From contig CAYPPJ010000002.1 in the NCBI GenBank assembly GCA_964412585.1, forward strand, positions 77,720 to 141,719: a stretch of 64,000 nt of DNA, read 5' to 3'. Below, one piece after another: positions 6,700 to 64,000 of the stretch. A model generated the notes under the pieces. That model worked only from the letters and a program-made list of their open reading frames with translations, had not been told where the DNA came from and did no database searches. The position numbers were made by a program, and so were the translations under genes. The first letter of the stretch is position 1, and each line of letters opens with the position of its first letter. This DNA comes from an uncultured Candidatus Saccharibacteria bacterium. Lineage in GTDB: Bacteria; Patescibacteriota; Minisyncoccia; Phycocordibacterales; PALSA-1337.

Positions 6700-6821
6700 A
6701 ATGTGAGGGTCTTTCTTGGTTTGTGATTGTGAATGTTCTGCGTTGTTACTCTATGAGCCCTCGACACCATGTCGTCGGCTCAATGAAGTGGAGGAAGGGT
6801 GGGCTTCCTCCGTGGGGAAGT

Positions 6822-7169: not shown

Positions 7170-7390
7170 AGTATTGAGTTCGGTTAGGGGATTCAGTTCG
7201 CAGACGATAGTGTCAGCGTGTCACTGTCTCCCCAGTCCCGAACTCAATCTACTGTATTCAAGGTACTTTCCTTTACTTACTTGTATAATTATTGCATAAT
7301 TTGTCCGAATTGTCAATTAAAAAATCACAAATAAAGCCTTGTTTTCCAATATATATTGATAAATAAGGCTAAAAATGTGTCAACAAAGTA

Positions 7391-7418
7391 TTGACAACAT
7401 AGGGGTATCTGCTACACT
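7391..7418 (+). promoter_or_regulatory. sigma70-type promoter TTGACA-N16-TACACT for regulator 7425
   Basis: TTGACA at 7391-7396 and TACACT at 7413-7418, 6 nt before the ATG. Confidence 0.5.
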
Positions 7419-7424
7419 TTAGGC

Positions 7425-9003: not shown

Positions 9004-9012
9004 AGTATATAT

Positions 9013-9041
9013 TTGTCGATTTTCGCCGACAGATTTACAAT
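9013..9041 (+). promoter_or_regulatory. promoter TTGTCG-N17-TACAAT with an inverted repeat TGTCG-N8-CGACA (9014-9031) inside the spacer; candidate operator between regulator 8185..9003 and the binding-protein gene at 9070
   Basis: Read directly from ATTTGTCGATTTTCGCCGACAGATTTACAAT. Confidence 0.5.
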
Positions 9042-9069
9042 ACCACAGCTTCGGGTTATGCTCAAGCCC

Positions 9070-10155: not shown

Positions 10156-10181
10156 GTGGGACGTTCAGTCTATAGTGATTA

Positions 10182-20646: not shown

Positions 20647-21474
20647 TTACTTTTGATTCGTCCGAACCTGCTTTATCAGTCTATTATGATCAATCTTTCT
20701 ATTACTTACTTTCACAAACTCGAACATATCGCGTAGGAAGAGCATGATTTCTTTGTTGGTAATCTCAATAGCAACCTCTTCACGCCAGTTCACGATGAGC
20801 GCCGTATCTTTAAAAAGCCATATCTCGGCGTCATGATCAAAGAATTGGTCGGGAAAAGTGGTGTAGTCTGCCATACGACCTTCTAGACTCTCGACAGCCG
20901 CTGCATTTTTCTTGAAATCACTTTTTATTTCTTCTCTATATTGCGCATAAGCACTTTCATTCAGGATTCCATCGATAATAAGCCGGTTTTTGATAACTGT
21001 TTTATTAAATTCAACCAATTGCGCCTGCGAAATCTTTTCCAACATGGCATTCCAGGAGCGGTGGTGTTGAATGGCTTTAATGCGCTGGTTCTTATTTTCC
21101 TTAACAACACGCAAATATGCGGGGATGACTTCCTCTTTGCCTACATGAATAATAAATTCGTTTTCTTTCGAGGTACGGATACGGACGCCGCGCTTTTCTT
21201 TGGCTGACATGCGGATGTCGCCAATCACCCGTTCAAATTTTTGCGCGAGCCTATCTCCACTTACGGCAATATAGTTTCTACGCCTCTTGATCTGAATAGG
21301 GGATACCAGACCTTTCTTGGTCAATTTTTCCAAACAGTAAGTAACTCCCGTACGCGATACTCCACTGTCGCGGGTAATGTCGCGTACATTTTTCTCCGTT
21401 GAAAGTACGTTGAGCACGCTGGTTTCTACGGAATTCAGCCCGAGTATTTTCATTGAGTCTTGAGACCAATTCAT
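20647..21474 (-). CDS. TrmB-family HTH transcriptional regulator (paralog 5)
   Basis: ...LNVLSTEKNVRDITRDSGVSRTGVTYCLEKLTKKGLVSP helix-turn-helix; divergent from the binding-protein gene at 21616. Confidence 0.55.
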   Translation of the reverse strand: MNWSQDSMKILGLNSVETSVLNVLSTEKNVRDITRDSGVSRTGVTYCLEKLTKKGLVSPIQIKRRRNYIAVSGDRLAQKFERVIGDIRMSAKEKRGVRIRTSKENEFIIHVGKEEVIPAYLRVVKENKNQRIKAIQHHRSWNAMLEKISQAQLVEFNKTVIKNRLIIDGILNESAYAQYREEIKSDFKKNAAAVESLEGRMADYTTFPDQFFDHDAEIWLFKDTALIVNWREEVAIEITNKEIMLFLRDMFEFVKVSNRKIDHNRLIKQVRTNQK

Positions 21475-21615
21475 GCCATTATCATAGTAAATAACTAATT
21501 TTTAGTCAAATCAATAATACAAAAAATGCCTTAAAATAAGGGTATTATACTAATTTTGCATCCAAAATCGATATTTATATACAACAGATTATTAAACATG
21601 TAAAATATATGCATT

Positions 21616-22722
21616 ATGAATAAATATATAAAAATAGGTATTGGTATCGTGGTTATAGTAGTTGTGATTATTATTGGTGTTACGAATGAAAGTTCACAAA
21701 AAAAGTCAGGTTCGCTCAAGATAGGGGTGATTTCTTCGCTGACTGGTGATTATGGCGCAATCGGAGAAAATACAGTAAAGGGTATTAAAGTCGCGCAGCG
21801 TGTATATGAGAAAAAGACGGGCACAAAAGTGGAGCTTGTTATCGAAGATGATGGAGGTGATGGTGTAAAAGGTCTTTCTGCCTTTAGCAAGCTTACGCAG
21901 GTCAACCATGTCGATGGCATGATTAATTTCTTTACTACGACGATGGACTCGATCTACGCACCAGCAAAGACTCAAGGGTATCCAGTGATGATGGTGGCAT
22001 TTCAGGCGAATAACGTAGCTGACGACTTCGTCTTTCAGATGACGCCAAGTAATGATGATGTCTGGCCAAAGTTTGTAAAGCTTGTGAAGAATGGTGACTA
22101 TGACTTGAGTAATGTCGCACTCGTGTATTCCAAGGCGGCAGCACAAGAATCATTTGTCAAATCATTTGCCTTGAATTATGCAGGCAAAGCTACTCAGTTC
22201 GGTATTTCTTCAGGACAGAATGATTTCCGTTCTGATGCTGCGAAGATTGCCGCATTCAAACCAACGACGGTTGTCTTCTTCATGACGCCGGATGATGGGG
22301 CGCTTCTCACCAAGACGTTGGTACCAATGTTAAGCAAGTCGACAAAGCTTATCTACGACATTCAGTTAGTGACGGGTACCGCGAATTATAAAAAGATTCT
22401 CGGAGGTTTCTCATCTATCGAGGGTGCCATGACCTTGAGTCCAGAAGGTGAGCGTAGTCAGGATTTCATTGACGCATATCATGAGCTTTATCCAAATGAA
22501 GAACCAGGATTTCTTGCGGATTTCGGTTACGACACATTCATGGTCTACATGGAGTCGTATGACGAAGATAATGCAACTTGGATCTCGAACCTTCGCTCGT
22601 ACACCGGAAAAGGCCCGAGCGGACAGATAAAGTTCAACGATAAGGGTATTCGAGCCCCTGATATGGTGGTTAAGAAGGTGGTTGGCGGGGAATTGCAGAC
22701 GACGGCGAGATTGGAGTTCTAA
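21616..22722 (+). CDS. type-1 periplasmic binding protein (LivJ-like), membrane-anchored, with no transporter partner
   Basis: MNKYIKIGIGIVVIVVVIIIGV anchor, then SLKIGVISSLTGDYGAIGENTVKGIKVAQRVYEKKTGTKVELVIEDDGGD. Confidence 0.65.
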   Translation: MNKYIKIGIGIVVIVVVIIIGVTNESSQKKSGSLKIGVISSLTGDYGAIGENTVKGIKVAQRVYEKKTGTKVELVIEDDGGDGVKGLSAFSKLTQVNHVDGMINFFTTTMDSIYAPAKTQGYPVMMVAFQANNVADDFVFQMTPSNDDVWPKFVKLVKNGDYDLSNVALVYSKAAAQESFVKSFALNYAGKATQFGISSGQNDFRSDAAKIAAFKPTTVVFFMTPDDGALLTKTLVPMLSKSTKLIYDIQLVTGTANYKKILGGFSSIEGAMTLSPEGERSQDFIDAYHELYPNEEPGFLADFGYDTFMVYMESYDEDNATWISNLRSYTGKGPSGQIKFNDKGIRAPDMVVKKVVGGELQTTARLEF

Positions 22723-28190: not shown

Positions 28191-28219
28191 GGGCCCCCTA
28201 TAGGAGTGGGGCCTTTTTT
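28191..28219 (+). terminator. terminator; also overlaps the last codons of the regulator on the minus strand
   Basis: GGCCCC-ctataggagt-GGGGCC followed by T6. Confidence 0.55.
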
Positions 28220-28968
28220 ATTTGTGTTGTTTCAAGGAGTTTCCACATTGACAGGAATAGATTACGCAGCATGTTTGCGATAGCAGGCGACTCAATGATG
28301 ATTGCGTACTCTTCTTTCTCTTTAAAGGAAAAAAAGGCTAGTTTGTTGGCGTATATATCTATCGTGCCATGGATGGGCGAGCCAGAGGGAAGTAAACGAG
28401 TCTCTCGGTAGGAATTTGTCACCAGATCAGGGTCTGATGTCCTATCTCCTGCGCTTGAAGTGATGAGATATGAAAAAATTTTGAGCTGTTCACGGCGTTT
28501 GAGCCACTGAGGAAAGAATTTTGGAAGCATACTCAACATATCGAGGTTAGAAAATGCATGTAGTTCACGAATATTTTCACGATCAAGGGTTTCGAGGATG
28601 TCATCGAAGACGAATTTTACGCCACTTGATCCCATGTAAAGTTTTGCGGCAGGCATAAGCCTGTCGTGGCCACGGAGGCTCATAAGTTCCGGAATTGCAG
28701 AACGAATAAGGGCTTCTTTTTCCTGTTGGATTTTCAATAATCGATTTGGACTCTCGGCAGAGTAGTAAATGACATTGTTTTTCTTCCAAGAAGAGACGTA
28801 ACCTTGTGCTGTAAGGGAATCGAGAGTGTGATATGCGGTTGTACGTGCAATGCCTGTCTCTTTTGCCAGCATGAAAGCCGTCGCTTCGGCGTGTCGTAAC
28901 AATGAAGTGTAGATGGTCGCCTCATTTTCACTGAAACCACATTTTTTGAGGGTATTTTGTATTGACAT
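28198..28968 (-). CDS. TrmB-family HTH transcriptional regulator (paralog 6)
   Basis: MSIQNTLKKCGFSENEATIYTSLLRHAEATAFMLAKETGIARTTAYHTLDSLTAQGYVSSW; C-terminus ...FLSMWKLLE. Confidence 0.6.
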   Translation of the reverse strand: MSIQNTLKKCGFSENEATIYTSLLRHAEATAFMLAKETGIARTTAYHTLDSLTAQGYVSSWKKNNVIYYSAESPNRLLKIQQEKEALIRSAIPELMSLRGHDRLMPAAKLYMGSSGVKFVFDDILETLDRENIRELHAFSNLDMLSMLPKFFPQWLKRREQLKIFSYLITSSAGDRTSDPDLVTNSYRETRLLPSGSPIHGTIDIYANKLAFFSFKEKEEYAIIIESPAIANMLRNLFLSMWKLLETTQIKKAPLL

Positions 28969-28975
28969 GAATACT

Positions 28976-28990
28976 GTCCAAAATTTGGAC
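28976..28990. promoter_or_regulatory. inverted repeat GTCCAAA-a-TTTGGAC, 8 nt upstream of the regulator 28198..28968 start; candidate autoregulatory operator
   Basis: Read directly. Confidence 0.4.
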
Positions 28991-29100
28991 TACTTTTTAT
29001 GCATAAAATATGGCCTTACTATAGTTTATTTTAATCATAAGTGCAAATATGTGTAAAATTAAAGGACTATATTGACATAATTTGTAATAATGTTCTTGTT

Positions 29101-30213
29101 ATGAAAAAAATATCCATTATTACCTGTGTGGCTATCATTATTATTGGTGTGTTGATCTGGAAAGGCCCCAATCAGGAAACGGTCATAAAAATTGGTGTCG
29201 TGGGACCATTTACCGGTAGCGCGGCTAGTTTTGGCGATCTGATGCAACGTGGGTTGGATTTGGGACTGGCATCGCTCACCGATGAACAGAAGTCGCGCAT
29301 TCAGATTATAAAAGAAGATGATGCGTGTAGTGGTAAGAATGCTGTCAGCGCGGTCAAAAAACTCATAGAGGTTGATAAGGTCAATTATATTATTGGCCCG
29401 CTATGTAACGAATCGACATTAGCGACAGAAACTTTATTTGAAGATAACAAGGTTATCTCAGTAAGCATTGGATTGCCCTCAAATAAGATTGCCGAGATGG
29501 GCCCGTACCATTTCTCGTTTTCTCCAGAGATTGAATATCTTATGAAGACGCTTTCGCAGAAAGTTATTGACGAAAATATGCACCGCGTAGCAGTAATCCA
29601 CATAACTTCTGCAATGGAAGAGGAGAACTACTCCAATTTTGTTAAGCACTTCAGGGAATTGGGCGGGGTTATTGTTGCTGACGAGGCGGCACCGAAGGGT
29701 GCAAGTGATTTTCGAGATCTTGTCCTGAAAGTAAAGCAGTCCAAGCCGGACGCGATCGTAATCATGGCGTATCGTGAAGGGGAATTGAACACATTACTTA
29801 AGCAATTATCTGATGCTGGCCTGGGAAATCTGCCGAAATTTGGCATCCATGCGGTTCAAACTCCTGCGGTTCTCAACGTGAAGGATCTTGCCGAGGGACT
29901 TATCTATCCGTATCCTGCCGACAAAACGGCGAATGAGTCGGCTGCTGCCTATGCACGCATGTATCGCGAGAAATATGATGCGGATCCAGATATTTCTTCC
30001 TCGAATACCTATGACTCACTGCGAATATTTGTCACTTCAATCGAGAAATGTGGCTATTCAAATAAAGAATGTGTACGTGATTCAATTGCACAGCTTAAGA
30101 ATTATCAAGGTGCCAACGGAAGCTTGTCACTTGATGAGAGAGGAGTGGGCACGTATAAGGAGATTATGTTGAAGGTGGTTCACGATGGAAAGTTTGAGAA
30201 ACTGCCCGAATAG
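29101..30213 (+). CDS. type-1 periplasmic binding protein (LivJ-like), membrane-anchored, with no transporter partner
   Basis: Start placed at the internal Met (MKKISIITCVAIIIIGVLIW); then VIKIGVVGPFTGSAASFGDLMQRGLDLGLAS. Confidence 0.65.
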   Translation: MKKISIITCVAIIIIGVLIWKGPNQETVIKIGVVGPFTGSAASFGDLMQRGLDLGLASLTDEQKSRIQIIKEDDACSGKNAVSAVKKLIEVDKVNYIIGPLCNESTLATETLFEDNKVISVSIGLPSNKIAEMGPYHFSFSPEIEYLMKTLSQKVIDENMHRVAVIHITSAMEEENYSNFVKHFRELGGVIVADEAAPKGASDFRDLVLKVKQSKPDAIVIMAYREGELNTLLKQLSDAGLGNLPKFGIHAVQTPAVLNVKDLAEGLIYPYPADKTANESAAAYARMYREKYDADPDISSSNTYDSLRIFVTSIEKCGYSNKECVRDSIAQLKNYQGANGSLSLDERGVGTYKEIMLKVVHDGKFEKLPE

Positions 30214-43611: not shown

Positions 43612-43654
43612 ATCTTCAGCGAATCTTTATCATTTCTTCAGCGTTTCTTCAGTT
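43612..43654 (+). repeat. 43-bp direct repeat, copy 1 (ATCTTCAGCGAATCTTTATCATTTCTTCAGCGTTTCTTCAGTT), 22 nt upstream of the comEC N-terminal ORF
   Basis: Identical to 45700-45742; contains the internal sub-repeat TCTTCAGCG twice plus TCTTCAG. Confidence 0.8.
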
Positions 43655-43676: not shown

Positions 43677-45077
43677 ATGAACAAGGGGGTCATCGTTTTT
43701 TGGATGTTGCTGATCGGATGCGCTGTGACGCGTGTGATTTTTTCATTGGATCAAGACCCGCTACACATCGGTGCATGTGAGAAACAATTCGTAACTGGTC
43801 TCGGGACCACCACTGCCGATCCTGAACGTAAAGAGGGTGGGCAAGTCATGATTGTATCGGTGCAGGAGTTATTTGTGGCGACTACTACCGCAGACAGAAC
43901 TGTTCACTCTCTTGGCGATTCGTGCGGTTCTCACATTTTAATCCGACTCAAAACAAAACTGTATCCACGTTTTTCTTACAATGACACTATTACGTTTTCA
44001 GGAAAAATTTCTAAACCGTTTAACTTCAAGAGTGAAACGGGTAGGGCTTTTGATTATGTTGGCTATTTAGCAAAAGACGACGTGTTTTATGAAATAAAAA
44101 GTGCCGTGGTCACGTCAGTGCCGGCAGATGAGCCCAAGAAATTATCTTATGGAGGAATTTCTGGCATTCTTTTTTATATGAAGCGTCGGTTTGTCTCACA
44201 TCTTGAACATATTCTTGGTGAACCCCACGCCGCACTTGCCGCTGGCCTTGTTGTCGGCGAAAAAAGCGCCTTAGGAAAAGATTTGCTGAATGATTTTCGC
44301 ATTGTCGGACTGATCCACATTGTTGTTCTTTCAGGTTTTAACATCACTATCGTTGGGGATGCGATGAGAAAATTACTTTCATTTGTGCCACGCGTATGGG
44401 GAATTGTGGTTGGTGGCATCGGTATTGCATTGTTTGGTGTGATGGTTGGCGGGGGAGCGACAGTGGTTCGTTCTTGCTTCATGGCCGGTATTGCGTTATC
44501 CGCTGATCTTATTCGTCGCGACTATCAGGTCACTCGCGCGCTTATCTTTGCGGGTCTTTTGATGCTGATACAAAATCCAATGATTTTGCTCCATGATCCA
44601 TCGTTTCAGCTCTCATTTTTGGCTACACTTGGACTTATTTTGCTCGCCACCCCTATTGAAAAACGCCTGACCAAGATTCCGGAAAAGTTTGGTATGCGCG
44701 GGATTGTGGCGGCGACTATTGCCACGCAGATTTTTGTTTCGCCGTACATTCTCTATATGATGGGAAGTATTTCTATCATTGGGATGGTTGTGAACATTCT
44801 AGTCCTGCCGGTCATTCCAATAACAATGCTCATAGTATTCCTGACTGGCGCTGCGGGATTTATTTCACTCGATATTTCACAAATATTCGGATGGATCGCG
44901 CACTTATTACTCACCTATGAGCTACACATGGTCGAGTGGTTCGCCCGCATTCCGTTTGCATCAGTAACCCTACCAATGTTTTCGGGCTGGTGGGTGGTGG
45001 GATTTTACGTGGTCTTCTTCGGTGTATTCATATTCTTCAAGCGCGGACAAAAAAGGCGACCTAAGCCGCCTCTTTGA
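43677..45077 (+). CDS. comEC: ComEC/Rec2 competence channel, N-terminal polytopic membrane part (split gene)
   Basis: Competence-domain motifs (...FRIVGLIHIVVLSGFNITIVG...) and multiple TM helices. The expected C-terminal metallo-beta-lactamase domain is missing here and is encoded separately at 45763. Confidence 0.7.
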   Translation: MNKGVIVFWMLLIGCAVTRVIFSLDQDPLHIGACEKQFVTGLGTTTADPERKEGGQVMIVSVQELFVATTTADRTVHSLGDSCGSHILIRLKTKLYPRFSYNDTITFSGKISKPFNFKSETGRAFDYVGYLAKDDVFYEIKSAVVTSVPADEPKKLSYGGISGILFYMKRRFVSHLEHILGEPHAALAAGLVVGEKSALGKDLLNDFRIVGLIHIVVLSGFNITIVGDAMRKLLSFVPRVWGIVVGGIGIALFGVMVGGGATVVRSCFMAGIALSADLIRRDYQVTRALIFAGLLMLIQNPMILLHDPSFQLSFLATLGLILLATPIEKRLTKIPEKFGMRGIVAATIATQIFVSPYILYMMGSISIIGMVVNILVLPVIPITMLIVFLTGAAGFISLDISQIFGWIAHLLLTYELHMVEWFARIPFASVTLPMFSGWWVVGFYVVFFGVFIFFKRGQKRRPKPPL

Positions 45078-45699: not shown

Positions 45700-45742
45700 A
45701 TCTTCAGCGAATCTTTATCATTTCTTCAGCGTTTCTTCAGTT
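45700..45742 (+). repeat. 43-bp direct repeat, copy 2, 20 nt upstream of the comEC C-terminal ORF
   Basis: Exact copy of 43612-43654. Confidence 0.8.
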
Positions 45743-45762: not shown

Positions 45763-46704
45763 ATGACCACATCAGCACCTATTTTTGTGAAGCCACTCCT
45801 CATTGGGGTAGCGATTACAGCGCTTTGTACTGGCGTCAGCTTGTACGTGTGGCGCGAACAGCATCGCAAGCCAGTGCTCGAGGTGTATGTATTTGCACTG
45901 AAAAGCGGCCGATCGATGTTCATTCGTACTCCCGATGATTACCGTGTTCTCATAGATGGCGGTGCTAATGCTGATATTGTGCGCCAGATTACGCAGATTG
46001 TGCCATTTTATTCACGTCGTATCGACGCAATCATTGCTACCAACACAGATGGCAAGAATGTGTCGGGCCTTATTGATGTTGTTAGTCGTTATGATGTCGG
46101 TCGGACCTATATCCCGCGGCTGACTCTTGAAAATCTAGGGATTGCGACTTCAACTGACGAAATTTACGAGACATTCATCGAAACTCTTGCCGATAAAAAG
46201 ATAGAAACGAGTGAGATTGTAGCGGGGGACACACTTCATCTAGGTGAAGAAGTTATGTTGCACGCTCTGTTTCCGCCACCCGCACATGCGTTTGAATATT
46301 CCAAAGCCAGTGCGCCGGAAATTCTTTTTACTCTCTCATATAGGTCAGCTTCACTGACGTTCATGGGTGATGCGAGCAAGAAAGTACAAAAATACATTAC
46401 CTCATCGAGCAGTGAGATTATCGCCGACTCGGATGTCCTCGTCGTCTCACACGCGGCGGCGTCCGCACATATGTCGACCGAATTGATGGACATTCTACGA
46501 CCCGAGAGTCTCATATATGAAAAAGCAGTATCAAAATCTACCACACAATCCTCGAAGACTTCTTCGAAGAAAAATAAAGTAGTTGATCCGTTGGCAACAG
46601 TTCTTAACGGGAACCGATTTAATCTGAAGGAGATGGGGACTACTCTCATTACTTCAAACGGGGAAGATGTAGAAATTAAAAAAGCCGGCAGTGCCGGATT
46701 TTAA
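45763..46704 (+). CDS. ComEC C-terminal metallo-beta-lactamase-fold domain protein (second part of the split comEC)
   Basis: N-terminal TM helix, then ...MFIRTPDDYRVLIDGGANADIVRQI...IDAIIATNTDGKNVSGL..., typical of the ComEC MBL domain. Confidence 0.6.
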   Translation: MTTSAPIFVKPLLIGVAITALCTGVSLYVWREQHRKPVLEVYVFALKSGRSMFIRTPDDYRVLIDGGANADIVRQITQIVPFYSRRIDAIIATNTDGKNVSGLIDVVSRYDVGRTYIPRLTLENLGIATSTDEIYETFIETLADKKIETSEIVAGDTLHLGEEVMLHALFPPPAHAFEYSKASAPEILFTLSYRSASLTFMGDASKKVQKYITSSSSEIIADSDVLVVSHAAASAHMSTELMDILRPESLIYEKAVSKSTTQSSKTSSKKNKVVDPLATVLNGNRFNLKEMGTTLITSNGEDVEIKKAGSAGF

Positions 46705-51906: not shown

Positions 51907-51996
51907 TTGTACACAAGAGGAAAATTATTATGTAAATAGATGCGGTATACTGGGGGCATTAGATTATTCTTGGAATTTATTAAACTAATTATTTTT

Positions 51997-54876
51997 ATGA
52001 AGAAAATCACCAGAATTGCATTAGTGGGTTTTATGGCACTCTCGTCTATTTTTCTGTTCAATAATCAGGTTCGGGCCGAGTTAACACCTTGTTTGGATAA
52101 CTATGTCTATCCTGGACCAGGGCTCGTTCACTTGAGTCCTTGTACCGTGAATATTGATATGGTTGATGGTGCGGGCAATGTACCCATTAACGTCATGCTT
52201 GTGGATCAAAATAGTGGATATGGTGGATATACAGGATATGAGATTGAGCAACCCACAGGGTTTCCGGAATATGGTCTGAGCAAAAATGTAAGTTCGGGTG
52301 TTATTGTAGGTCAGACATCCATTGGTTTCACTGCTATTGATTCGGTGCTTGCTGCTAGTGGTACGCAGCCACGTATATATAATGGCAAAGTTGATATACA
52401 TCTTTTTCGGGGCACTTCATTACCAGACGGGAACAATGTTACTTTGTATATAAATATTAAAGTTTATCCCGCTGGTAGCACGATCCCACCAAAAACTAAT
52501 GTTAACCCAACTCTTTCGGCGATATCTGTAGTAAGTACAAGTGAAGACTATGTGAGTGGGGACGGTTTTAGTCCTGATGGGTGGGCTGATTGGAAGTTGA
52601 ATTTCAATCTTGCGGCAAATTCGGAAAAATCTATAAGACGTATTACTATCGCAAATAATTGGGGGCACGGTAATTATGGTTCTATTGATGCGTGGTCGAC
52701 TGGACTAGCTGCGGCTTACCCCTTGGATGGTATGCCTGTGTACCCATTACTTGTTACTTCTGGAGGTTACACCTTGTCATTAAGAGGAGATATTATACCA
52801 ATATCAAATATCCAAAACCAAACATACACCTTATACGCTCCAGTAGGACCTAGTGGTCCTGCGTGGACGGGGGGTAATCTTTTTGTTGAATTCACTGATG
52901 GCACTAGAATTACTGCTGATTTGCCGGCTTCAAATGCGAAACCGATTAATAAGCCATCAATAAAAACAATAACACCTACTTTGGCCTTGGTGGGTACGCA
53001 GGTAACTCTCACGGGAGTTTTTCCAGATGTGAATTCGATTCGGTTGACCCCCTCACCGAGCGGGAATGGATATCAAGCGATATCTCCAGTTTTTTCGCCC
53101 GACAGTACGCATCTAGATTTTAGTATTCCAAATGAATATTCTTCGTTTAATGGAAATGTTGCAGTTACAGTTACTGACTCAAAAGGACAAATTTCTAATT
53201 CACAGAGTTTGAATATAGTTATGTCGACGAGTACAAACCAAATCGTCTCCCGTCTCGACCCCTCAAGTCCTCCTGCTCGTACCGCCATCATTTCACCCAC
53301 GACTGTTACAGATAACGTAGTTCTTGGTGTATTTGATTTCAAGTCACAGAACAAGGATGCTACACTGCGCTCTATTAAATTCAAAGTATGGACGAGTACG
53401 TCAACGGTACAGACAACTTTCAACACGATCAAGATCAAGGTTGGATCGACGACATACTATCCGAGCAGCATAGCTCAGAGTGGTGCATACGCTGTCGTCA
53501 CATATACAAATCTTGCTGTACCAATGCCCGCTTCACAGTTCGTGCCTATAATTGTGTATGGCACAGTTGCTCCTGATCGCACGGGTGTTATGAATGGCGC
53601 GCGAGTGGCAGTAAACATTCTCGCAAGTAACTCGACAGTATATGCTGACGATGCCACATTTACACAGGTTCCCGTTGCTCAAACAGAACTTACCTCAAGC
53701 GATCTGACCTTCGCCACTGCAGCAACAAAGAGTATTACCCTCAACAAACTCGTTCTTTCTTCGAGCTATCATGTTGGCGATATTATTCCAATCAAATGGA
53801 GCTCAACCAATGTCAACAATGTCGTCATCAACTTGATGAACTACAAAGGCTTGTCAGTTGTGCGCTTCATTGCCTCATCGACTGCGTCAGTAGGGCAGTA
53901 CAATTGGACTGTTCCTTCAAATATTGATTTTAACTACGATACGATCTATACGATTGCGGTATCTGATGCGGCTACGCCAAGCATTATTTCGAAGTCAGGA
54001 AAAATAGAATTGCTCCCAGCCACCCCGAACGCTTCACCTGTGGCCATAAGCAACCAAGTTACGTCATTTGTGCCGTTGGTGACACCAAATGGCACGACGG
54101 GGGGAAATGCAACCTTTGCCTTCACATTGACTGCTGGCAGCAATCCAATATACATCAGTAGGACGGCCTCAGGGGTCATGACGTTGGTTCCAGTAGGCAT
54201 GACAGTCTCAATCAATTCAGTCACTGCCGAACCTGCGGGTGTGAGTGGTGATAGCAATTCTTCCTTTGTTATACCTGCAGGAACATCACGACGATTTACC
54301 TATAACGCATTCCTTGATAATTCCAATGGCACAACAGGTCAGAAACTTGTTTCGATACAATCGATTATCTATGGCATGACAGCGGCAAATCCGAACGGCT
54401 ATCAGATTTCCTCAGGATTGGATAATCTCAAGTTGTCAGTGAACTTGAATAGTAATGGGACACCGCCACCAGTCACTGCATTATCGGCACGTCTTACGGT
54501 AGAGGGTCAGCATACTTACACATACACTGTCGGTCAGACCAATCACATTGCTTGGTTAGGCTCGGGTCCAAGTGGCACGGTATACTCGTCATATTCAAAA
54601 GCTAATGATGTGGGGAAGTGTGGCGAGGGAGCGTGGGTTGCAAACAATGCACAAGGAACATCCAATACCTATCTCACGGGACAATGGGCAGGATGTACGT
54701 GGACTGTTACCTACGTCGCAACAAATCCTGCAACAGGCCAATCTGTTCAGGATAGTGTGACAGTGAGCGTTGTGAGCCAGTCAACTCCACCTCCAACGAG
54801 TACGACGACGTCATATTATCCATCAAATTATGGGGCAGCGATAATAAACGCATTGACTCGTTTGTTGGGATTGTAG
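51997..54876 (+). CDS. very large secreted surface protein (about 960 aa), Thr/Ser/Asn-rich beta-sandwich-like repeats
   Basis: Start placed at MKKITRIALVGFMALSSIFLFNNQVRA (signal peptide). No catalytic motif found; the composition is typical of an adhesin or S-layer-like protein. Confidence 0.45.
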   Translation: MKKITRIALVGFMALSSIFLFNNQVRAELTPCLDNYVYPGPGLVHLSPCTVNIDMVDGAGNVPINVMLVDQNSGYGGYTGYEIEQPTGFPEYGLSKNVSSGVIVGQTSIGFTAIDSVLAASGTQPRIYNGKVDIHLFRGTSLPDGNNVTLYINIKVYPAGSTIPPKTNVNPTLSAISVVSTSEDYVSGDGFSPDGWADWKLNFNLAANSEKSIRRITIANNWGHGNYGSIDAWSTGLAAAYPLDGMPVYPLLVTSGGYTLSLRGDIIPISNIQNQTYTLYAPVGPSGPAWTGGNLFVEFTDGTRITADLPASNAKPINKPSIKTITPTLALVGTQVTLTGVFPDVNSIRLTPSPSGNGYQAISPVFSPDSTHLDFSIPNEYSSFNGNVAVTVTDSKGQISNSQSLNIVMSTSTNQIVSRLDPSSPPARTAIISPTTVTDNVVLGVFDFKSQNKDATLRSIKFKVWTSTSTVQTTFNTIKIKVGSTTYYPSSIAQSGAYAVVTYTNLAVPMPASQFVPIIVYGTVAPDRTGVMNGARVAVNILASNSTVYADDATFTQVPVAQTELTSSDLTFATAATKSITLNKLVLSSSYHVGDIIPIKWSSTNVNNVVINLMNYKGLSVVRFIASSTASVGQYNWTVPSNIDFNYDTIYTIAVSDAATPSIISKSGKIELLPATPNASPVAISNQVTSFVPLVTPNGTTGGNATFAFTLTAGSNPIYISRTASGVMTLVPVGMTVSINSVTAEPAGVSGDSNSSFVIPAGTSRRFTYNAFLDNSNGTTGQKLVSIQSIIYGMTAANPNGYQISSGLDNLKLSVNLNSNGTPPPVTALSARLTVEGQHTYTYTVGQTNHIAWLGSGPSGTVYSSYSKANDVGKCGEGAWVANNAQGTSNTYLTGQWAGCTWTVTYVATNPATGQSVQDSVTVSVVSQSTPPPTSTTTSYYPSNYGAAIINALTRLLGL

Positions 54877-57847: not shown

Positions 57848-58465
57848 ATGAAAAACTCTACTACAGGTCACCCTAAGCTCGAACGTACGTTAGTTATTAT
57901 CAAGCCAGATGGCATACAGCGCGGACTCATTGCTGAGATTATAAAACGATATGAACAGATTGGCCTCAAGTTGGTGGCAATTAAGATGATGGTCCCTACC
58001 GCTGAGCTGATTGAAAAACACTACACACTTGATCCGGAATGGCGCGTGAAGACGGGGCTCAAAACCATTAAAGGATACGAAGATAAGGGTCTTACACCCC
58101 CACTAACTGATCCGTTGAAGATAACCGAAATCATTTTAAGAAATAATGTGGCATACATGACCAAGGGGCCCATTATAGTCATGATATGGCAAGGTGCTCA
58201 TGCAGTTCAGATCGTGCGTAAATTAACTGGTGGTACGGAACCACTCACGTCAGATGTAGGTACTATTCGAGGTGATTTTGTCCTAGATTCATATAGTATG
58301 AGTGATGGGGATGGGCGAGCGGTTCGCAATCTCGTGCATGCCTCTGGATCTATCAAAGACGCCAATGATGAGATAGCTCATTGGTTCAAAAAAGAGGAGA
58401 TTTTTGACTACACACTCCTCAATGAAGCCATGTTGTACGACCTCAGTCTCGATGGAATCCTCTAA
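57848..58465 (+). CDS. ndk: nucleoside-diphosphate kinase (with an internal insertion)
   Basis: ERTLVIIKPDGIQRGLIAEII..., ...RGDF... and NLVHASGS (the NxxHGSD catalytic His region). Confidence 0.75.
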   Translation: MKNSTTGHPKLERTLVIIKPDGIQRGLIAEIIKRYEQIGLKLVAIKMMVPTAELIEKHYTLDPEWRVKTGLKTIKGYEDKGLTPPLTDPLKITEIILRNNVAYMTKGPIIVMIWQGAHAVQIVRKLTGGTEPLTSDVGTIRGDFVLDSYSMSDGDGRAVRNLVHASGSIKDANDEIAHWFKKEEIFDYTLLNEAMLYDLSLDGIL

Positions 58466-58758
58466 CTTGTGCACGACACACAGTTGTCGTGTTTGTAAAA
58501 CGAATGTTATAACTCACTATCCACTTTTACCGTACGGCAAACAGGAATACAATGAATGCAGGTTGCGGAGTATTAAACCCTATACCAATTTATACGGGAG
58601 CTCGACGAACTTCGGTTCACATTAGGTTGCACCTTGGTGCTAACCTTGAGAGCACCCACCTAGTTTTTCTAGGTTAATCAATACTTCGTAACCTACCCAA
58701 AGATCGTCTCCTCGTGAGATGATTTTTGATTTAGAAGAAAAAAAGTTATACTTACCCA

Positions 58759-59124
58759 ATGCTTTCTTACATACTCGCTCTGGTTGTCCTCGCGGTTGTT
58801 CTTGCAGGTCTTTCTCTCGGTCCTGACGCAACGTATATTAGTATGAAATATTTTGACAGCGTCCTCCATCTGCTGGCAGGTGTCGGTCTCGGATTCTTTT
58901 TTGATGCACTGACTCTCTCGATCGGTTCACGTCGCTGGCACACACGCTGGGGCATAGTGCTCATAGTTTTCGGGGGAGGAATTGCTTGGGAAATATTTGA
59001 GGCTTATTTCAATATTACCGGATTCAAGCTTTGGACAACGATGTATTATCTTGATACGGCAAAGGATTTGTTGCTCGACACAGTCGGTGCATGGGTGGCG
59101 GTGCACATAGTTACGCATAAATAA
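58759..59124 (+). CDS. hypothetical small integral membrane protein
   Basis: Hydrophobicity pattern only. Confidence 0.35.
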   Translation: MLSYILALVVLAVVLAGLSLGPDATYISMKYFDSVLHLLAGVGLGFFFDALTLSIGSRRWHTRWGIVLIVFGGGIAWEIFEAYFNITGFKLWTTMYYLDTAKDLLLDTVGAWVAVHIVTHK

Positions 59125-59129
59125 TTCCC

Positions 59130-60521
59130 ATGTCTATTCCACGAGTTACATTTTATAGTGGTGTTGGAACGGTAACTGGTGCCAATTTTATGTTGGACAC
59201 GGGGAAATCTAAGATTCTCATTGATTGCGGCATGGTCCAGGGAGAAAAATTTGCGATGGAAGAAAACGCGCAGCCGTTTGCCTATGATATCTCATCGATT
59301 GATGCGCTTATTATCACCCATGCTCATCTCGATCATGTTGGCCGTATTCCTAAATTGGTAAAAGATGGATACCAGGGTCCAATATATTCAACTCTAGAGA
59401 CACGACAGCTTGCAGAATTGGTGCTCAATGACGCGGTTGGTATATTGGCAATCGAGGCCAAACAAAATGAAGTTGTGCCAATGTATGGCATTGAAGATGT
59501 GGAGGCTGTGTTTCCTTTATGGAAAACAATTCCGTATCATCAAGATGCACAAATCACAGACGATGTGAGTGTATTTTTGAAGGATGCCGGTCATATTCTC
59601 GGCTCTGCAATGATCGAGGCGCGCATTAGGAAGCAGGGAGAAGGAAATGTTGGAAACGGGGAAATCAAAGTTCTATTTACCGGTGATGTTGGTAATTCAC
59701 CCGCGCCACTTCTCCGAGACACGGAATCAGTCGGAGATGTCGACTATATGGTTACCGAGAGTGTGTACGGAGATAGAAATCATGAAGACAGGGCGACTCG
59801 CTCACAGCAATTTGAAAAAATAGTAAATGACACTCTTGCGCGTGGTGGCACATTGGTCATCCCTGCATTTTCAATAGATCGTACCCAGGTTCTTTTGTAT
59901 GAATTGAATAATCTTGTTGAGCAAAAAAAGATCCCGTCCGTTCCAGTGTTTGTCGACTCACCGATGGCGATAAAAGCGACCGAGGTATATCAGGAGAGTA
60001 CCCAATTATTCAATGACCATGTTAGATCACAGATTGCGGGCGGAGATAATATTTTCAATTTCCCACACCTCCAGTTTACTGTGTCCCAAAATGAGTCGCG
60101 AGACATTGAACGTCTCCAAGGGGCAAAGATTATCCTTGCTGGTTCGGGAATGTCCGTTGGGGGTCGCGTGTTGAGCCATGAAGAAGACTTTTTACCTGAT
60201 CCAAAGAATACAGTCTTACTTGTGGGATATCAGACGACTGGTTCGGTTGGTCGCCAACTTGCAGACGGTGCAAAGAAGGTCACTATTCATGGTCGTACGG
60301 TCAAAGTGAAAGCCCATGTTGAGGCTCTGTACGGCTATTCGGCACACAAAGATAGCGATCACATGGTCGAGTTCGTGGCGACAGCAACAAATCGGCTGCA
60401 AAAGGTATTTGTCGTCATGGGAGAACCAAAAGCCTCGATGCATTTGGCGCAGCGGCTCAATGATGAGTTGGTAGTAAAGGCGATGGTGCCGGAGAGGGGA
60501 GTTGGATACGAGTTGGAATAA
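59130..60521 (+). CDS. metallo-beta-lactamase-fold beta-CASP family hydrolase (RNA-metabolising type)
   Basis: ILIDCG...ITHAHLDHVGRIP (HxHxDH), then downstream Asp/His motifs and a beta-CASP-like C-terminal region. Confidence 0.65.
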   Translation: MSIPRVTFYSGVGTVTGANFMLDTGKSKILIDCGMVQGEKFAMEENAQPFAYDISSIDALIITHAHLDHVGRIPKLVKDGYQGPIYSTLETRQLAELVLNDAVGILAIEAKQNEVVPMYGIEDVEAVFPLWKTIPYHQDAQITDDVSVFLKDAGHILGSAMIEARIRKQGEGNVGNGEIKVLFTGDVGNSPAPLLRDTESVGDVDYMVTESVYGDRNHEDRATRSQQFEKIVNDTLARGGTLVIPAFSIDRTQVLLYELNNLVEQKKIPSVPVFVDSPMAIKATEVYQESTQLFNDHVRSQIAGGDNIFNFPHLQFTVSQNESRDIERLQGAKIILAGSGMSVGGRVLSHEEDFLPDPKNTVLLVGYQTTGSVGRQLADGAKKVTIHGRTVKVKAHVEALYGYSAHKDSDHMVEFVATATNRLQKVFVVMGEPKASMHLAQRLNDELVVKAMVPERGVGYELE

Positions 60522-60536
60522 GTTTTCATCATATAT

Positions 60537-60565
60537 TAAAAACCCCGGAAGACCGGGGTTTTTAA
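60537..60565. terminator. bidirectional terminator between the MBL gene and rplT
   Basis: AAAAACCCCGG-aaga-CCGGGGTTTTT. Confidence 0.7.
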
Positions 60566-60910
60566 TTATTTTACCTTTGAAACTACTCGTGCAAATGTCT
60601 CGGGCTTGAATTCTGCGAGATGAGCCAGAATCTTGCGATCGAGCTCGATGTTCTTTTTCTTTGCTGCTCCGATAAACTTTGAGTATGAGAAGCCCAATGG
60701 ACGAAGGCCGGCATTGATCTTGACGTTGAAAAGACGGCGCATGTCACCCTTTTTGTCGCGGCGATGAGCGAGGGCGTATGCCCCAGCGTGTTGGAGGGCA
60801 TCAATAGCCATGCGCTCCTTCTTTGAGCGACCAAATCGGAAGCCCTTTGCGGCCTTGAGGATGGAACGGCGGTGTTTGAGGGCGTTTACTGCTTTCTTTA
60901 CACGGGTCAT
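60566..60910 (-). CDS. rplT: 50S ribosomal protein L20
   Basis: MTRVKKAVNALKHRRSILKAAKGFRFGRSKKERMAIDALQHAG... Confidence 0.9.
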   Translation of the reverse strand: MTRVKKAVNALKHRRSILKAAKGFRFGRSKKERMAIDALQHAGAYALAHRRDKKGDMRRLFNVKINAGLRPLGFSYSKFIGAAKKKNIELDRKILAHLAEFKPETFARVVSKVK

Positions 60911-61007
60911 GGTAGTAGTTAAGTAATTAGTAATTAGTAACTAGTAATTAGAGAATGATGTGTTTGTTTTTCTAATCTCCAATTACTAGTTACTAATCTC
61001 TTATTGT
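60911..61007 (-). repeat. AT-rich imperfect-palindrome element, copy B, filling the rpmI-rplT intergenic region
   Basis: GTAATTAGTAATTAGTAACTAGTAATTAGAGAATG...TTCTAATCTCCAATTACTAGTTACTAATCTC; the arms pair over about 15 bp perfectly plus additional imperfect pairs. Confidence 0.7.
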
Positions 61008-61199
61008 TTATAAATTGACGAGGAATCGACTCTTGGCCTTATTGTCCATGTGAATGGTATTCATACGGCGCTTGTTGGTGCTGGTGCGAGTTCGCTCACG
61101 TGCGTTGAAGTGGTTTTGGCCAGCCTTGCGCGACAAAATCTTGCCATTTTTGGTGACCTTGAGACGCTTGAGATATGATTTGGTGGTTTTGATACTCAT
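61008..61199 (-). CDS. rpmI: 50S ribosomal protein L35
   Basis: MSIKTTKSYLKRLKVTKNGKILSRKAGQNHF... Confidence 0.85.
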   Translation of the reverse strand: MSIKTTKSYLKRLKVTKNGKILSRKAGQNHFNARERTRTSTNKRRMNTIHMDNKAKSRFLVNL

Positions 61200-61291
61200 A
61201 AATTTAGTAATTAGTAACTGGTAATTGGTAATTAGAGAATCGCAAGCCGTACCTTCTAATTACTATTTACTAGTTACTAATCTCTATGTGA
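61200..61291 (-). repeat. AT-rich imperfect-palindrome element, copy C, filling the infC-rpmI intergenic region
   Basis: TAGTAATTAGTAACTGGTAATTGGTAATTAGAGAATC...TTCTAATTACTATTTACTAGTTACTAATCTC. Confidence 0.7.
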
Positions 61292-61810
61292 TTACTTCTT
61301 TTCTATAACAATACTCAATCCCTTCGGTCCTTTGGTTACGTCCTGCGCGACCTTGTATTCGACGGTCACGAGCTTGAGGAGGCGTTCGAGACGTTCCTTA
61401 AGAAAGTTGAGGTCCATATACTTGGATCGTCCGATGAGGAAGAGGTCTATCTTGACTCGATTACCTTCGCCGAGCCATTCTGAGACTCGCTTGGCCTTGA
61501 GTTCGAGGTCATGCTCGCCAGTTCCAATCTTGACTTGAACTATCTTGAGTTCACTGGTCTGGACTTTGGCTTTGGCAGCTTTCTCCTTCTTCTTTTCATC
61601 GTACAGGTACTTTCCATAATCCATTATCTTCGCAACCGGGGGAATAGCGGTCGGGGAGATTTCGATCAGGTCCAGAGTGCGCTTTTGGGCTTCTGCAAGG
61701 GCGACAGAGAGGGTGATAACACCGAGATTTTCTCCTTCGGCTGTTATAACGCGCAACTCAGGCGCTTTTATCTGATGATTTATTTTGACTCGAATGGCCA
61801 AGTGATTGGG
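61292..61810 (-). CDS. infC: translation initiation factor IF-3 (probable non-AUG start)
   Basis: ...APELRVITAEGENLGVITLSVALAEAQKRTLDLIEIS... with a conserved C-terminal domain. The canonical N-terminus begins inside the ORF with no Met, consistent with the AUU/AUA start common for infC; the 5' coordinate is approximate. Confidence 0.75.
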   Translation of the reverse strand, partial: PNHLAIRVKINHQIKAPELRVITAEGENLGVITLSVALAEAQKRTLDLIEISPTAIPPVAKIMDYGKYLYDEKKKEKAAKAKVQTSELKIVQVKIGTGEHDLELKAKRVSEWLGEGNRVKIDLFLIGRSKYMDLNFLKERLERLLKLVTVEYKVAQDVTKGPKGLSIVIEKK

Positions 61811-61907
61811 ATTACAGGGGTTATTTATAACATACAGCGCTGTATTCTGCAACCCGCGAGCCCTATCCACATTGCGGTTATATGAGGGTGGGGGGTACAA
61901 TAGAGGC

Positions 61908-62222
61908 ATGCCTGGCGAGTCAGTTCAATTCTCACAAACTAAACATCACCGCAAGTCGGTAGCAGCACTTGTTGTGGCGGTGGTCGTGTTTGGTATTATC
62001 ATTGCCAACTATTTGTCTTCTGACAAATCCCAGCAGGAAGTGCAAACATCAGTTAGGTCACAGACTCCACAAGAACGTCTGGTAGCAGTATTGGACGCCT
62101 CACCTGATGTGTCAGTTTCGGTAGATCAAAAAAATCGTGCTGTTAACGAATTGAAAAAAAGTCGAGCCACACTTTCAAATAGTCAAAAGTCAGACATTAT
62201 TAGCTCGTTACAAGAACGTTAA
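61908..62222 (+). CDS. hypothetical small membrane protein
   Basis: Start taken at the internal Met (MPGESVQF...) with one TM helix; it is divergent from infC. Confidence 0.35.
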   Translation: MPGESVQFSQTKHHRKSVAALVVAVVVFGIIIANYLSSDKSQQEVQTSVRSQTPQERLVAVLDASPDVSVSVDQKNRAVNELKKSRATLSNSQKSDIISSLQER

Positions 62223-62232
62223 TATTTTTATT

Positions 62233-63216
62233 ATGAAATCAACATTTGTCTCTCGTGTTGCTACAACTGCAGGCCTTCTCCTGGGCGCATTTGCCTTGTC
62301 AGCTCTCGCTGCCACATGGACTGCTCCGACCGTACCAGCTCCTGGTGGCAATCCAGATGCCCCGATCAATGTTGGTAGTCTATTGCAGAACAAACTTGGC
62401 TGGCTTGGGGTGAAGGGACTCGTGACAACTGACCTTACACTTGCTACGGGTACTCCTGCAGTTGGCAAAGTGTTGACTGCTATTGATGCTTTGGGAAATG
62501 CAACATGGGCTACTCCGGCGGGAGGGAATGAGGGTAACTGGGAGACAGGCGAAATAACCTTGCCATGTCAGGCGTACGCATGGTCAACGAGTCAGAATGT
62601 CACATTCACCAAGATTTTCGCAGTTGCCCCTAAGATTATTACTCAACCTAAATGGGAACGATACACGGGTAATGAAAGTGCGGCATGGTGGGTGACAAAT
62701 GTCACTACGACCGGTTTTACTATGAATTATGGTACGCCGAATAGCGGTTCGTGTTATCCGTCGTCAGGTGGCAACGGTATAATGTGGGTTGCAGTAGGAC
62801 AGGGAAGCGGAGCGCCTTCTGGTGGACATGTGGCAAATAAGTTCACGACCAAGTACACAACACTTATGAGTGACCCAACTTTCTATTCATGGGTTGGGAA
62901 TTCTGGCATGCCTACCAGTGGGGGTAGTGACCGTGGATGGTATATTCGAACATCAGTTTCTCCGACACGATTCGCTGATACTGCCAACAGACTTTGTTCA
63001 TATTTTATGACTAACGGCACTGCCACTGTGTATTCAGGACAGTATACTGGTGGAGACTACGGTAGTGATAACAATAACACTGCTTATTACTGGAATACGG
63101 GCACGAATACGTGGTCATCGGAAGCACATGGTGACGACGGGTCTATCGATATCACATCATTGATTTGTGTCGGTGACGGTGTTCTCGATCGCGGAGTCAA
63201 GTTCTTGGCCCAATAA
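62233..63216 (+). CDS. secreted protein with an H-type-lectin-like domain (tandem paralog 1)
   Basis: Signal peptide ...LSALA-ATW; domain ...NVTFTKIFAVAPKIITQPKWERYTGNESAAWWVTNVTTTGFTMNYG...IMWVAVGQ fits the H-type lectin pattern (VTFxxxFxxxPxV...W..NVTxxGFxxN...W.A.G). Confidence 0.5.
   Translation: MKSTFVSRVATTAGLLLGAFALSALAATWTAPTVPAPGGNPDAPINVGSLLQNKLGWLGVKGLVTTDLTLATGTPAVGKVLTAIDALGNATWATPAGGNEGNWETGEITLPCQAYAWSTSQNVTFTKIFAVAPKIITQPKWERYTGNESAAWWVTNVTTTGFTMNYGTPNSGSCYPSSGGNGIMWVAVGQGSGAPSGGHVANKFTTKYTTLMSDPTFYSWVGNSGMPTSGGSDRGWYIRTSVSPTRFADTANRLCSYFMTNGTATVYSGQYTGGDYGSDNNNTAYYWNTGTNTWSSEAHGDDGSIDITSLICVGDGVLDRGVKFLAQ
62305..62456 (+). repeat. 152-bp block identical to 63318-63469, embedded in otherwise diverged paralogs
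   Basis: Direct comparison of the two N-terminal coding regions; flanking sequence is similar only at the protein level. Confidence 0.85.
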
Positions 63217-63245
63217 TTATTGGTGATATCTTAATTTTATTTACA

Positions 63246-63821
63246 ATGCGCTCTTCTCTTATTACCCGAGTTGTCACACTTGCCAGTCTCCTTGTTGGAG
63301 CTTTCGCGTTCTCTGCACTCGCTGCCACATGGACTGCTCCGACCGTACCAGCTCCTGGTGGCAATCCAGATGCCCCGATCAATGTTGGTAGTCTATTGCA
63401 GAACAAACTTGGCTGGCTTGGGGTGAAGGGACTCGTGACAACTGACCTTACACTTGCTACGGGTACTCCGTCAGCAGGTATGGTGCTTACTGCGCTCGAC
63501 AGTCTCGGTAATGCTGGGTGGGCTACACCGGCAGCTTCTTCTAATATGAGGTATGGTTCAGCAACACTAGCTTGCGCATCCTATCAACATCCAACAATAG
63601 GGACAGTTACTGTAACATTCTCACCAGTGCTTTCATCAGCTCCTTCAGCCGTCATAATCACTCCAAATTGGACAAATTACAGCGGCGATGAAGCACCGTC
63701 GTGGTGGGTAAGTAATGTAACAGCTAGTGGATTTAAGATTAATGTACAGACGACGGGGGAGAATCATTGTAGTGATCACCCAGGTACTGCCGACAAGGTG
63801 TTCTGGGCTGCCATGTACTGA
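63246..63821 (+). CDS. secreted protein with an H-type-lectin-like domain (tandem paralog 2)
   Basis: The same N-terminal 100 aa as paralog 1, then ...GTVTVTFSPVLSSAPSAVIITPNWTNYSGDEAPSWWVSNVTASGFKINVQT...KVFWAAM. Confidence 0.5.
   Translation: MRSSLITRVVTLASLLVGAFAFSALAATWTAPTVPAPGGNPDAPINVGSLLQNKLGWLGVKGLVTTDLTLATGTPSAGMVLTALDSLGNAGWATPAASSNMRYGSATLACASYQHPTIGTVTVTFSPVLSSAPSAVIITPNWTNYSGDEAPSWWVSNVTASGFKINVQTTGENHCSDHPGTADKVFWAAMY
63318..63469 (+). repeat. 152-bp identical block, second copy
   Basis: See 62305-62456. Confidence 0.85.
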
Positions 63822-64000
63822 TTTTAACAAATTTATTCATAACGCTGGATTCTGTTTGTCCCATGCTAAGCAGTGTTGCATTAATATTTTCTATCGTTCT
63901 ACTCATCCCTGGCATAGTGATGGCTCTAGTCCCCGGTCTTCCGGGGCTTTTGTATATGCTTGTGATTGCACTTGTCTTTGGATTTATTGACCAGTTTACG

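Follow-up and report, generated by a model that had tools for sequence, protein, structure and literature searches.

How do two adjacent genes come to share 152 nt in which not a single letter differs, while the codons on either side of this block have diverged? The question is posed by g1 (62,233–63,216, plus strand) and g2 (63,246–63,821, plus strand), a tandem pair close to the right end of the stretch of DNA analysed here, 64,000 nt (64 kb) from an uncultured Candidatus Saccharibacteria bacterium, which is referred to as the window throughout. Both genes are intact open reading frames (ORFs), co-oriented with 29 nt between them, and encode proteins of 327 aa (g1; the identical protein, P0001, occurs on eight contigs) and 191 aa (g2; P0004, on nine contigs). 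Read directly from the sequence, either protein begins with a Sec signal peptide made up of a basic n-region, a hydrophobic core and an A-L-A/A end. In g1, the signal peptide (aa 1–26) is followed by what we call the N-module (aa 27–97), an H-type lectin domain (~aa 100–192) and a further domain X (aa 200–327); g2 comprises a signal peptide, an N-module and a diverged H-type-lectin-like domain. The explanation that we favour for the whole, with a probability of roughly 0.85, is that g1 and g2 are old tandem paralogs that carry a conversion tract and sit in a recombination hotspot, where the N-module anchors the swapping of C-terminal 'heads'.

The identical block as a conversion tract

The block occupies positions 62,305–62,456 in g1 and 63,318–63,469 in g2 (both plus strand), i.e. 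codons 25–75 of either gene, and encodes the end of the signal peptide and the first ~50 residues of the mature protein. Its copies lie 1013 nt apart, in register in both ORFs, and match at 152 of 152 nt, a figure to be read as identical or nearly so, as bubble-popping during assembly could hide a few differences. Identity between g1 and g2 falls to 58% over the 72 nt to the left (signal-peptide codons 1–24) and to 63% over the next 63 nt to the right, with mismatches mainly at third codon positions. The proportion of differing synonymous sites (pS; Nei–Gojobori) is 0.83 in the left flank, 0.02 in the block and 0.75 in the right flank, and with 294 aligned sites of which 70 differ, 152 sites in a row without a difference have a P value of at most 8e-26. 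Only one other exact repeat of at least 40 nt, an intergenic one of 43 nt, exists in the window, despite the presence of several other sets of paralogs. At the protein level, the N-terminal 98 aa are ~82% identical between g1 and g2, the N-modules (aa 27–97) 91% and the H-type lectin domains 35%. The original prediction, made from the letters of this DNA alone, had described a perfectly identical 152-bp stretch with differing codons around it, and near-identical N-terminal regions in front of differing C-terminal domains; all of this was borne out.

Perfect identity could in principle be kept by selection on the DNA or RNA itself, for instance if the sequence formed a structured RNA, served as a regulatory site or as the target of a recombinase, or held an antisense ORF, and antisense ORFs do overlap both copies (62,208–62,468 and 63,197–63,406). 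Comparison with related genomes argues otherwise. While g1 and g2 are 100% identical in the block, their identity to the genes of L011, L007 and L010 is only 64–80% there, and the between-genome pS in the block is ~0.66. With about two thirds of the synonymous sites differing between genomes, the nucleotide sequence of the block is evidently not constrained across them. Nor does the tract stay in place, as its position differs in L007 and L090 (see below). The RNA fold of the block has an unremarkable z-score of −0.31 and no match in Rfam, and the copies are direct rather than inverted repeats, which speaks against an invertase-type switch. A functional nucleotide element is, therefore, an explanation to which we give hardly any credence.

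What the block looks like in relatives is more telling. In L007, a related genome whose rplT gene is 81% identical to that of the window, the paralogs P0012 and P0002 at the syntenic locus possess an exact tract of their own, which is 107 nt long and covers alignment columns 189–296 as opposed to 72–224 in the window. Within this tract, the two L007 genes are 100% identical to each other, compared with 63–69% to the window genes. Beyond these cases, exact 5′ blocks of 107–1879 nt that mostly give way to a sharp drop to ~30% identity are shared by paralogs, some of them tandem and others on separate contigs, in nine or more other genomes of Patescibacteria.

A ~99%-identical strain offers a view of the same process over a much shorter distance. 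L090, a contig of GCA_054403375.1 that carries P0174 and was found via the 90% cluster of g2, diverges from the window by 0.6% in the rest of g1 and by 2.4% in the rest of g2. Within the block, by contrast, its g2 differs from that of the window by 9.9%, and over the next 66 nt by 35%, because g1-type sequence sits there. In this strain, g1 equals g2 from the start of the contig (equivalent to 62,439 in the window) to 62,519, i.e. 63 nt past the end of the window tract, and at one site of the block (62,448/63,461) its two copies share a variant that sets them apart from the window. The junction between g1-type and g2-type sequence lies at ~nt 289 of g2, a point at which the parental sequences have no k-mer in common and which a chimera of the assembly graph can therefore not have produced.

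This last point bears on the possibility that the block is an artefact of assembly, in which merely similar copies were collapsed or bubble-popped to an identical consensus or different strains were mis-joined. Several contigs do end at or inside the block (L004 at 63,469 and L006 at 63,426; L090 starts at 62,439), and all data stem from short-read metagenome assemblies, in which graph simplification could slightly inflate the figure of 100%. Yet, such breaks are what a genuine repeat causes in short-read assemblers, and four independent assemblies (L001, L002, L003 and L005) run through both genes and match the window at every position from 61,000 onward. More than 10 genomes that stem from unrelated projects and assemblers display the same mosaic signature, and even a few popped single-nucleotide polymorphisms would still leave a near-identical tract between saturated flanks. 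We consider an artefact very improbable. A collection of metagenome contigs was also scanned with 45 nt of the block, yielding 0 exact matches, and with the g2 protein, yielding none; this collection evidently does not hold these samples.

Another way to arrive at such a pattern is the recent formation of a chimeric gene, in which the 5′ end was duplicated and a C-terminal cassette placed behind it, without any conversion between old paralogs. For many of the other genomes, in which identity sets in at the start codon or 5′ of it and breaks off abruptly, duplication followed by 3′ replacement fits equally well. In the window, however, the signal-peptide codons that precede the block are saturated, too, meaning that the block is internal and has two breakpoints within old paralogs, as expected of a conversion or double-crossover tract. 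In addition, the tract boundary has moved between the near-identical strains represented by the window and L090. A chimeric origin is thus improbable here, if less so than an artefact.

Taken together, the block is bounded by high pS on both sides, the paralogs are closer to each other within it than to their orthologues and the tract ends differ between lineages and strains. The 152-nt block is a recent tract of non-reciprocal homologous recombination, i.e. gene conversion, which recurs in relatives and strains; the original prediction of recent gene conversion is confirmed by the saturated flanks, the offset 107-nt tract of L007 and the shifted right boundary in L090. The underlying mechanism is ordinary homologous recombination, which, judging from established knowledge, would need only the general RecA pathway. 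In this respect, the pair resembles known cases of concerted evolution such as tuf genes, rRNA operons or tandem surface-protein genes, which likewise feature perfect tracts in diverged paralogs, variable tract ends between strains and within-genome paralogs that are more alike than orthologues. The difference is that conversion of g1 and g2 is limited to one module and occurs alongside the wholesale replacement of other modules.

A variable locus between conserved borders

This replacement becomes apparent from the position of the genes. The locus is bordered on the left by the rplT-rpmI-infC operon (60,566–61,909, minus strand; Pfam Ribosomal_L20, L35p and IF3 in L001) and on the right by genes for a DUF456 membrane protein, PLD and smpB. 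The rplT-rpmI-infC synteny is the same in L007, L010, L011, L089, L093 and L098, and the DUF456 gene is likewise found 3′ of the family genes in L007, L011, L089, L095 and L098. In the window, only the start of the DUF456 gene is included (63,863–64,000, plus strand; PF04306; 163 aa in the longer contig L001). It takes the place of the possible third gene that the original prediction had begun at 63,920; the gene starts at 63,863 and is no paralog of g1 and g2.

Between these fixed borders, the window and its relatives harbour eight different gene contents. If TM denotes a small single-pass membrane protein gene (see below), N the N-module and H the H-type lectin domain, the window reads TM, N-H-X, N-H. 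The other versions are TM, N-H-other in L089; TM, N-Y in L011; TM, N-M-Y, TM, N-H-Ins-X in L007; TM, N-Z in L010; TM, N-H in L091, L092 and L093; TM, N-V in L098; and, in L095, a 234-aa protein with the arrangement N′-M-H-other.

The clearest case is provided by L010 and L093. Their family genes are 96–97% identical over nt 1–267 and the sequence downstream of the genes is 97% identical, but no homology exists from a breakpoint at codon 89 to the stop codon, where the one carries Z and the other H. What has happened here is an allelic swap with clean edges, in which the C-terminal domain was replaced and the N-module supplied the homology on the left, and the cassette exchange considered in the original prediction has thereby found an actual example: unrelated C-terminal domains between near-identical flanks. 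Together with the moved tract end of L090, it also answers the suggestion to compare strains for mosaic variants, as variation among strains is clearly present. On a larger scale, identity between L089 and the window is 98.3% from 57,848 to 60,922 and ~85% from 61,008 onward, indicating that the whole locus was imported from a more distant lineage. The region between infC-rpmI-rplT and DUF456/PLD is, in short, a recombination hotspot with lineage-specific 'heads'.

Two kinds of short sequence elements were noticed around the locus. On either side of rpmI lies an AT-rich palindromic element of ~90 nt, composed of TAGTAATTAGTAAC-type units (60,919–61,010 and 61,203–61,294); the identity of L089 drops across 60,922–61,008, and a recombination breakpoint may be located in the first of these elements. 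A 21-nt G+C-rich hairpin-forming sequence with a CCCCGGTCTTCCGGGG core occurs on either side of the variable locus, once after an RNase J-like gene (60,538–60,558) and once within the DUF456 coding region (63,931–63,951), where it encodes PGLPG. This placement on both sides is probably coincidental. A scan of the locus for promoters and terminators returned nothing above the expectation from shuffled sequence.

The conserved companion of the family genes is the small membrane protein itself. Its gene lies directly upstream of g1 (61,908–62,222, plus strand; 104 aa) and is called in L001–L006. The protein combines an HHR[KR] motif (HHRK in the window), a transmembrane helix and a C-terminal tail of ~65 aa that ends in the conserved LSNSQKSDIISSLQ. 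Homologues of ~104–118 aa with a conserved C-terminal LSNSQKSDII motif are encoded immediately 5′ of family genes in L007 (two copies; 8289–8612 and 9660–9989), L010, L011 (5648–5980), L089, L091–L093 and L098 (5633–5989), i.e. in every version of the locus except L095. Weak homologues occupy the same position in more distant genomes of the candidate phyla radiation (CPR; L026, L027, L028 and L077), and no Pfam or NCBIfam family matches the protein above threshold. That its gene keeps this place immediately in front of a family gene even in some distant genomes suggests that the small membrane protein and the family protein form a functional pair, in which the former might anchor the N-module or assist in its export.

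A modular family and its possible role

The family extends well beyond the close relatives. When one genome of each GTDB species was scanned with a profile of the N-module, 78 loci emerged, mostly in metagenome-assembled genomes of Patescibacteria (CPR). The closest is that of Ca. Taylorbacteria nzgw447, whose N-module is 84% identical in aa and whose rplT is 86% identical in nt; by these best genome matches, the source organism is a Patescibacterium nearest to Ca. Taylorbacteria. A profile search of proteins with the N-module listed at least 20 short ones. An exhaustive phmmer search with g1 against 1.84 billion cluster representatives gave 541 matches with E ≤ 1e-3, and the N, H and X parts matched different proteins independently. 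The 21 closest homologues display the architectures N-H-X, N-H, N-H-Ins-X, N-X, N-Y, N-M-Y, N′-M-H and N followed by unknown sequence; across them, the N, H, X, M and Y modules recombine freely, and most of the C-terminal modules are without a Pfam match. By all appearances in sequence, this is a Patescibacteria-wide family of Sec-secreted modular proteins, in which a conserved N-module of ~70 aa precedes interchangeable, putatively binding-type C-terminal domains. We found no paper in which an H-type lectin is linked to Patescibacteria or in which the motif strings of the N-module appear, and the literature on gene conversion or concerted evolution in the CPR is, by its titles and abstracts, not about the g1/g2 family.

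Each of the three parts of g1 was compared with known proteins. In the N-module, no relative passes the threshold in Pfam or NCBIfam and none was found in the PDB. Its second half contains the motif G-x-VLT-x-D-x-x-G-N-x-x-W, to which short matches exist in Dyadobacter, in three contigs labelled Gammaproteobacteria and in one viral contig. As a separate observation, L072 (CAYJKP010000003.1, labelled Gammaproteobacteria) has several long exact repeats (731 and 366 nt) between neighbouring genes at 1709–9479, and these genes match the C-terminal half of the N-module only (residues 64–96); they may represent a similar conversion-prone, fibre-like family outside the CPR.

For the H-type lectin domain, g1 matches Pfam H_lectin (PF09458) at aa 120–175 with 27.9 bits against a gathering score of 24. 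A full-length AlphaFold2 (AF2) model of g1 reaches a predicted local distance difference test score (pLDDT) of 54 overall, with ~60–89 in the lectin domain (residues 100–190). A Foldseek search of the PDB with this model placed Helix pomatia agglutinin first (2ce6; E = 2e-4, TMt 0.65), accompanied by SLL-2, discoidin II, 3wmp (TMt 0.69), 2ccv and 4q56 and, more weakly, by R-pyocin fibre and phage tailspike domains. The six-stranded beta-sandwich of Helix pomatia agglutinin (HPA) is recognisable in this model, which covers g1. Both Pfam match and predicted fold at residues ~100–190 of g1 thus resemble the known H-type lectins (HPA, discoidin I/II and coral SLL-2; PF09458), from which g1 differs in its low identity of 15–21% and in the fusion of the domain to the N-module and to the orphan-fold domain X. 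Of the two H-type-lectin-like domains originally predicted, that of g1 holds by Pfam and by fold, whereas that of g2 remains below the Pfam threshold.

Domain X (62,818–63,213, plus strand; aa 196–327) was not among the parts named in the original prediction. Based on an alignment of 26 sequences, AF2 models it with a pLDDT of 92.7 and a predicted template modelling score (pTM) of 0.88. No structural match was obtained in the PDB or the BFVD (best Foldseek E > 1), and no sequence relative in the PDB (hmmsearch) or Pfam. The confidently predicted fold suggests a globular domain that is an orphan within this comparison with the PDB, BFVD and Pfam. It features two invariant cysteines and a conserved DYGSDNNN loop and is found behind other N-modules in P0002, P0007, P0009, P0010, P0013 and more than 15 further cluster representatives; counted over different N-termini, it recurs in more than 25 cluster representatives. 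A domain-X profile search added three sequences.

Constant N-terminal and variable C-terminal parts, as in g1 and g2, are also what one would look for in a dedicated hypervariation system, be it a diversity-generating retroelement (DGR) with its pair of template and variable repeats (TR/VR) or an expression site with silent cassettes of the pilE/pilS type. Patescibacteria are reportedly rich in DGRs that target lectin-fold proteins. Here, however, the repeat contains zero mismatches, hence none specific to adenine, and encodes the conserved rather than the variable part of the protein, and a reverse transcriptase was found neither in the 30 largest ORFs of the window nor in the neighbouring genes; neither the TR/VR adenine mismatches nor the nearby reverse transcriptase of a DGR target were thus seen. 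Silent cassettes are equally missing within the 64 kb, as both genes are full-length with their own start codon and signal peptide and neither extra nor partial copies exist. Such dedicated machinery can be regarded as extremely improbable. The likeness to Neisseria pilE/pilS lies in the non-reciprocal recombination that alters part of a gene for a surface or secreted protein, with the conserved part supplying homology; unlike there, no silent cassettes or dedicated cis element were found, and it is the conserved part that is homogenised rather than the variable part that is diversified. The surface-antigen type of variation that the original prediction had in mind, therefore, stands as far as diversification by recombination is concerned, whereas programmed antigenic variation is not demonstrated, no silent cassettes or dedicated machinery having been found.

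The closest analogy in terms of design is with the receptor-binding proteins (RBPs) of phages and tailocins, such as tail fibres and R-pyocin fibres, which also combine a constant N-terminus with swappable C-terminal heads and recombine at the conserved part; the H-type-lectin-like fold of g1 even weakly matches pyocin-fibre and tailspike domains. Yet g1 and g2 possess Sec signal peptides and reside in a housekeeping context (infC, rplT and smpB) with no phage gene nearby. We considered whether they could be a phage tail fibre or RBP and set this aside, given the housekeeping neighbours and the lack of any match, in DNA or protein, in 50,697 phage records. A phage origin was rejected as well: PHROGs gave nothing above noise, with one weak match to a family of unknown function (E = 0.0016), and IMG/VR one weak match to the motif. 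Rhs and CdiA-CT polymorphic toxins share the conserved N-terminal region, the replaceable C-terminal modules and the strain-hypervariable locus, but differ in that no toxin domain, downstream immunity gene or demarcation motif is found here and that the conserved partner is an upstream small membrane protein. A polymorphic toxin was accordingly rejected, as the C-terminal domains are either lectin-like or of unknown type, DUF456 comes next after g2 and no small ORF follows g1.

We thus return to old tandem paralogs with a conversion tract and N-module-anchored head swapping. The scenario begins with two paralogs that carry diverged H-type lectin domains, plus the putative orphan-fold domain in g1, and in which the N-module of one was partly overwritten by the sequence of the other through non-reciprocal recombination. 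The conserved N-module doubles as the 5′ homology arm for the exchange of whole C-terminal domains between strains. DNA imported via natural competence may contribute to this exchange: a cultivated Patescibacterium was shown to be naturally competent (PMC10633639), which, along with recJ, comEC and type IV pilus genes in the window, makes DNA uptake a plausible source of cassettes. Diversification could be driven by selection on binding specificity, and the N-module may constitute a common stalk or docking part that possibly works with the small membrane protein.

Several observations weigh against this reading, among which the contig ends and the short-read origin of all data described above have to be counted. 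Only two copies of the family are present in 64 kb, since tblastn found no further copy, full or partial, of the family genes in the window, and the further copies of the block that the original prediction had proposed to look for did not turn up there, either. The H_lectin match of g2 (aa 120–175, E = 4e-4) scores 20.8 bits, under the gathering score of 24. The N-module is modelled by AF2 with a pLDDT of just 37–66 and is without database relatives, making its role in stalk or docking a guess. Finally, no anchor motif is evident in g1 or g2, and the proteins may simply be released.

What might the products be good for? From their domains, they are probably secreted or surface-displayed glycan-binding adhesins that recognise the surfaces of host or partner cells. 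This would be consistent with work on cultivated relatives, in which host attachment by Saccharibacteria has been linked to no more than type IV pili and a small number of glycan-binding envelope proteins, and in which glycan-binding envelope proteins with polysaccharide-binding domains are essential for the epibiotic growth of a Patescibacterium (PMC10633639). Going one step further, the N-module and the small membrane protein might constitute a Patescibacteria-specific display system for interchangeable glycan-binding heads, whose recombination resets host range; this is a tentative proposal that we ourselves rate as rather unlikely. If true, the locus would be the host-range cassette of an epibiotic ultrasmall bacterium, analogous to the swapping of RBPs in phages.

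Independent of this proposal, the locus is a concrete and widely distributed candidate for host recognition and attachment by ultrasmall Patescibacteria. It joins a phylum-wide constant N-module to swappable lectin-type heads at a fixed chromosomal position, with contents that differ between near-identical strains. It further illustrates that the genes of this family are being actively remodelled in uncultivated lineages by homologous recombination, among paralogs as well as among strains, and it draws attention to two uncharacterised protein parts, the N-module and domain X.

Further repeats and paralogs in the window

The 43-nt intergenic repeat mentioned above, ATCTTCAGCGAATCTTTATCATTTCTTCAGCGTTTCTTCAGTT, itself contains internal TCTTCAGCG repeats and occurs at 43,612–43,654 and 45,700–45,742. 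Its copies are located just upstream of comEC (43,677–45,077) and of an unannotated ORF of 313 aa (45,763–46,704), and it may be a shared regulatory site. Elsewhere in the window, five genes for TrmB-family regulators and five for Peripla_BP_6 solute-binding proteins, mostly arranged as adjacent pairs (3892–11,261, 20,647–22,722 and 28,198–30,213), form an expanded set of paralogs in a small genome, with no exact repeats of at least 40 nt among them.

Lastly, an ORF of 978 aa without a Pfam match (51,940–54,876) marks the place where differences in two otherwise identical assemblies, L003 and L004, begin (53,358 and 53,652). Past 54,478, there are no differences in these two assemblies, nor in L002. 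This ORF looks like a second strain-variable gene of the window.

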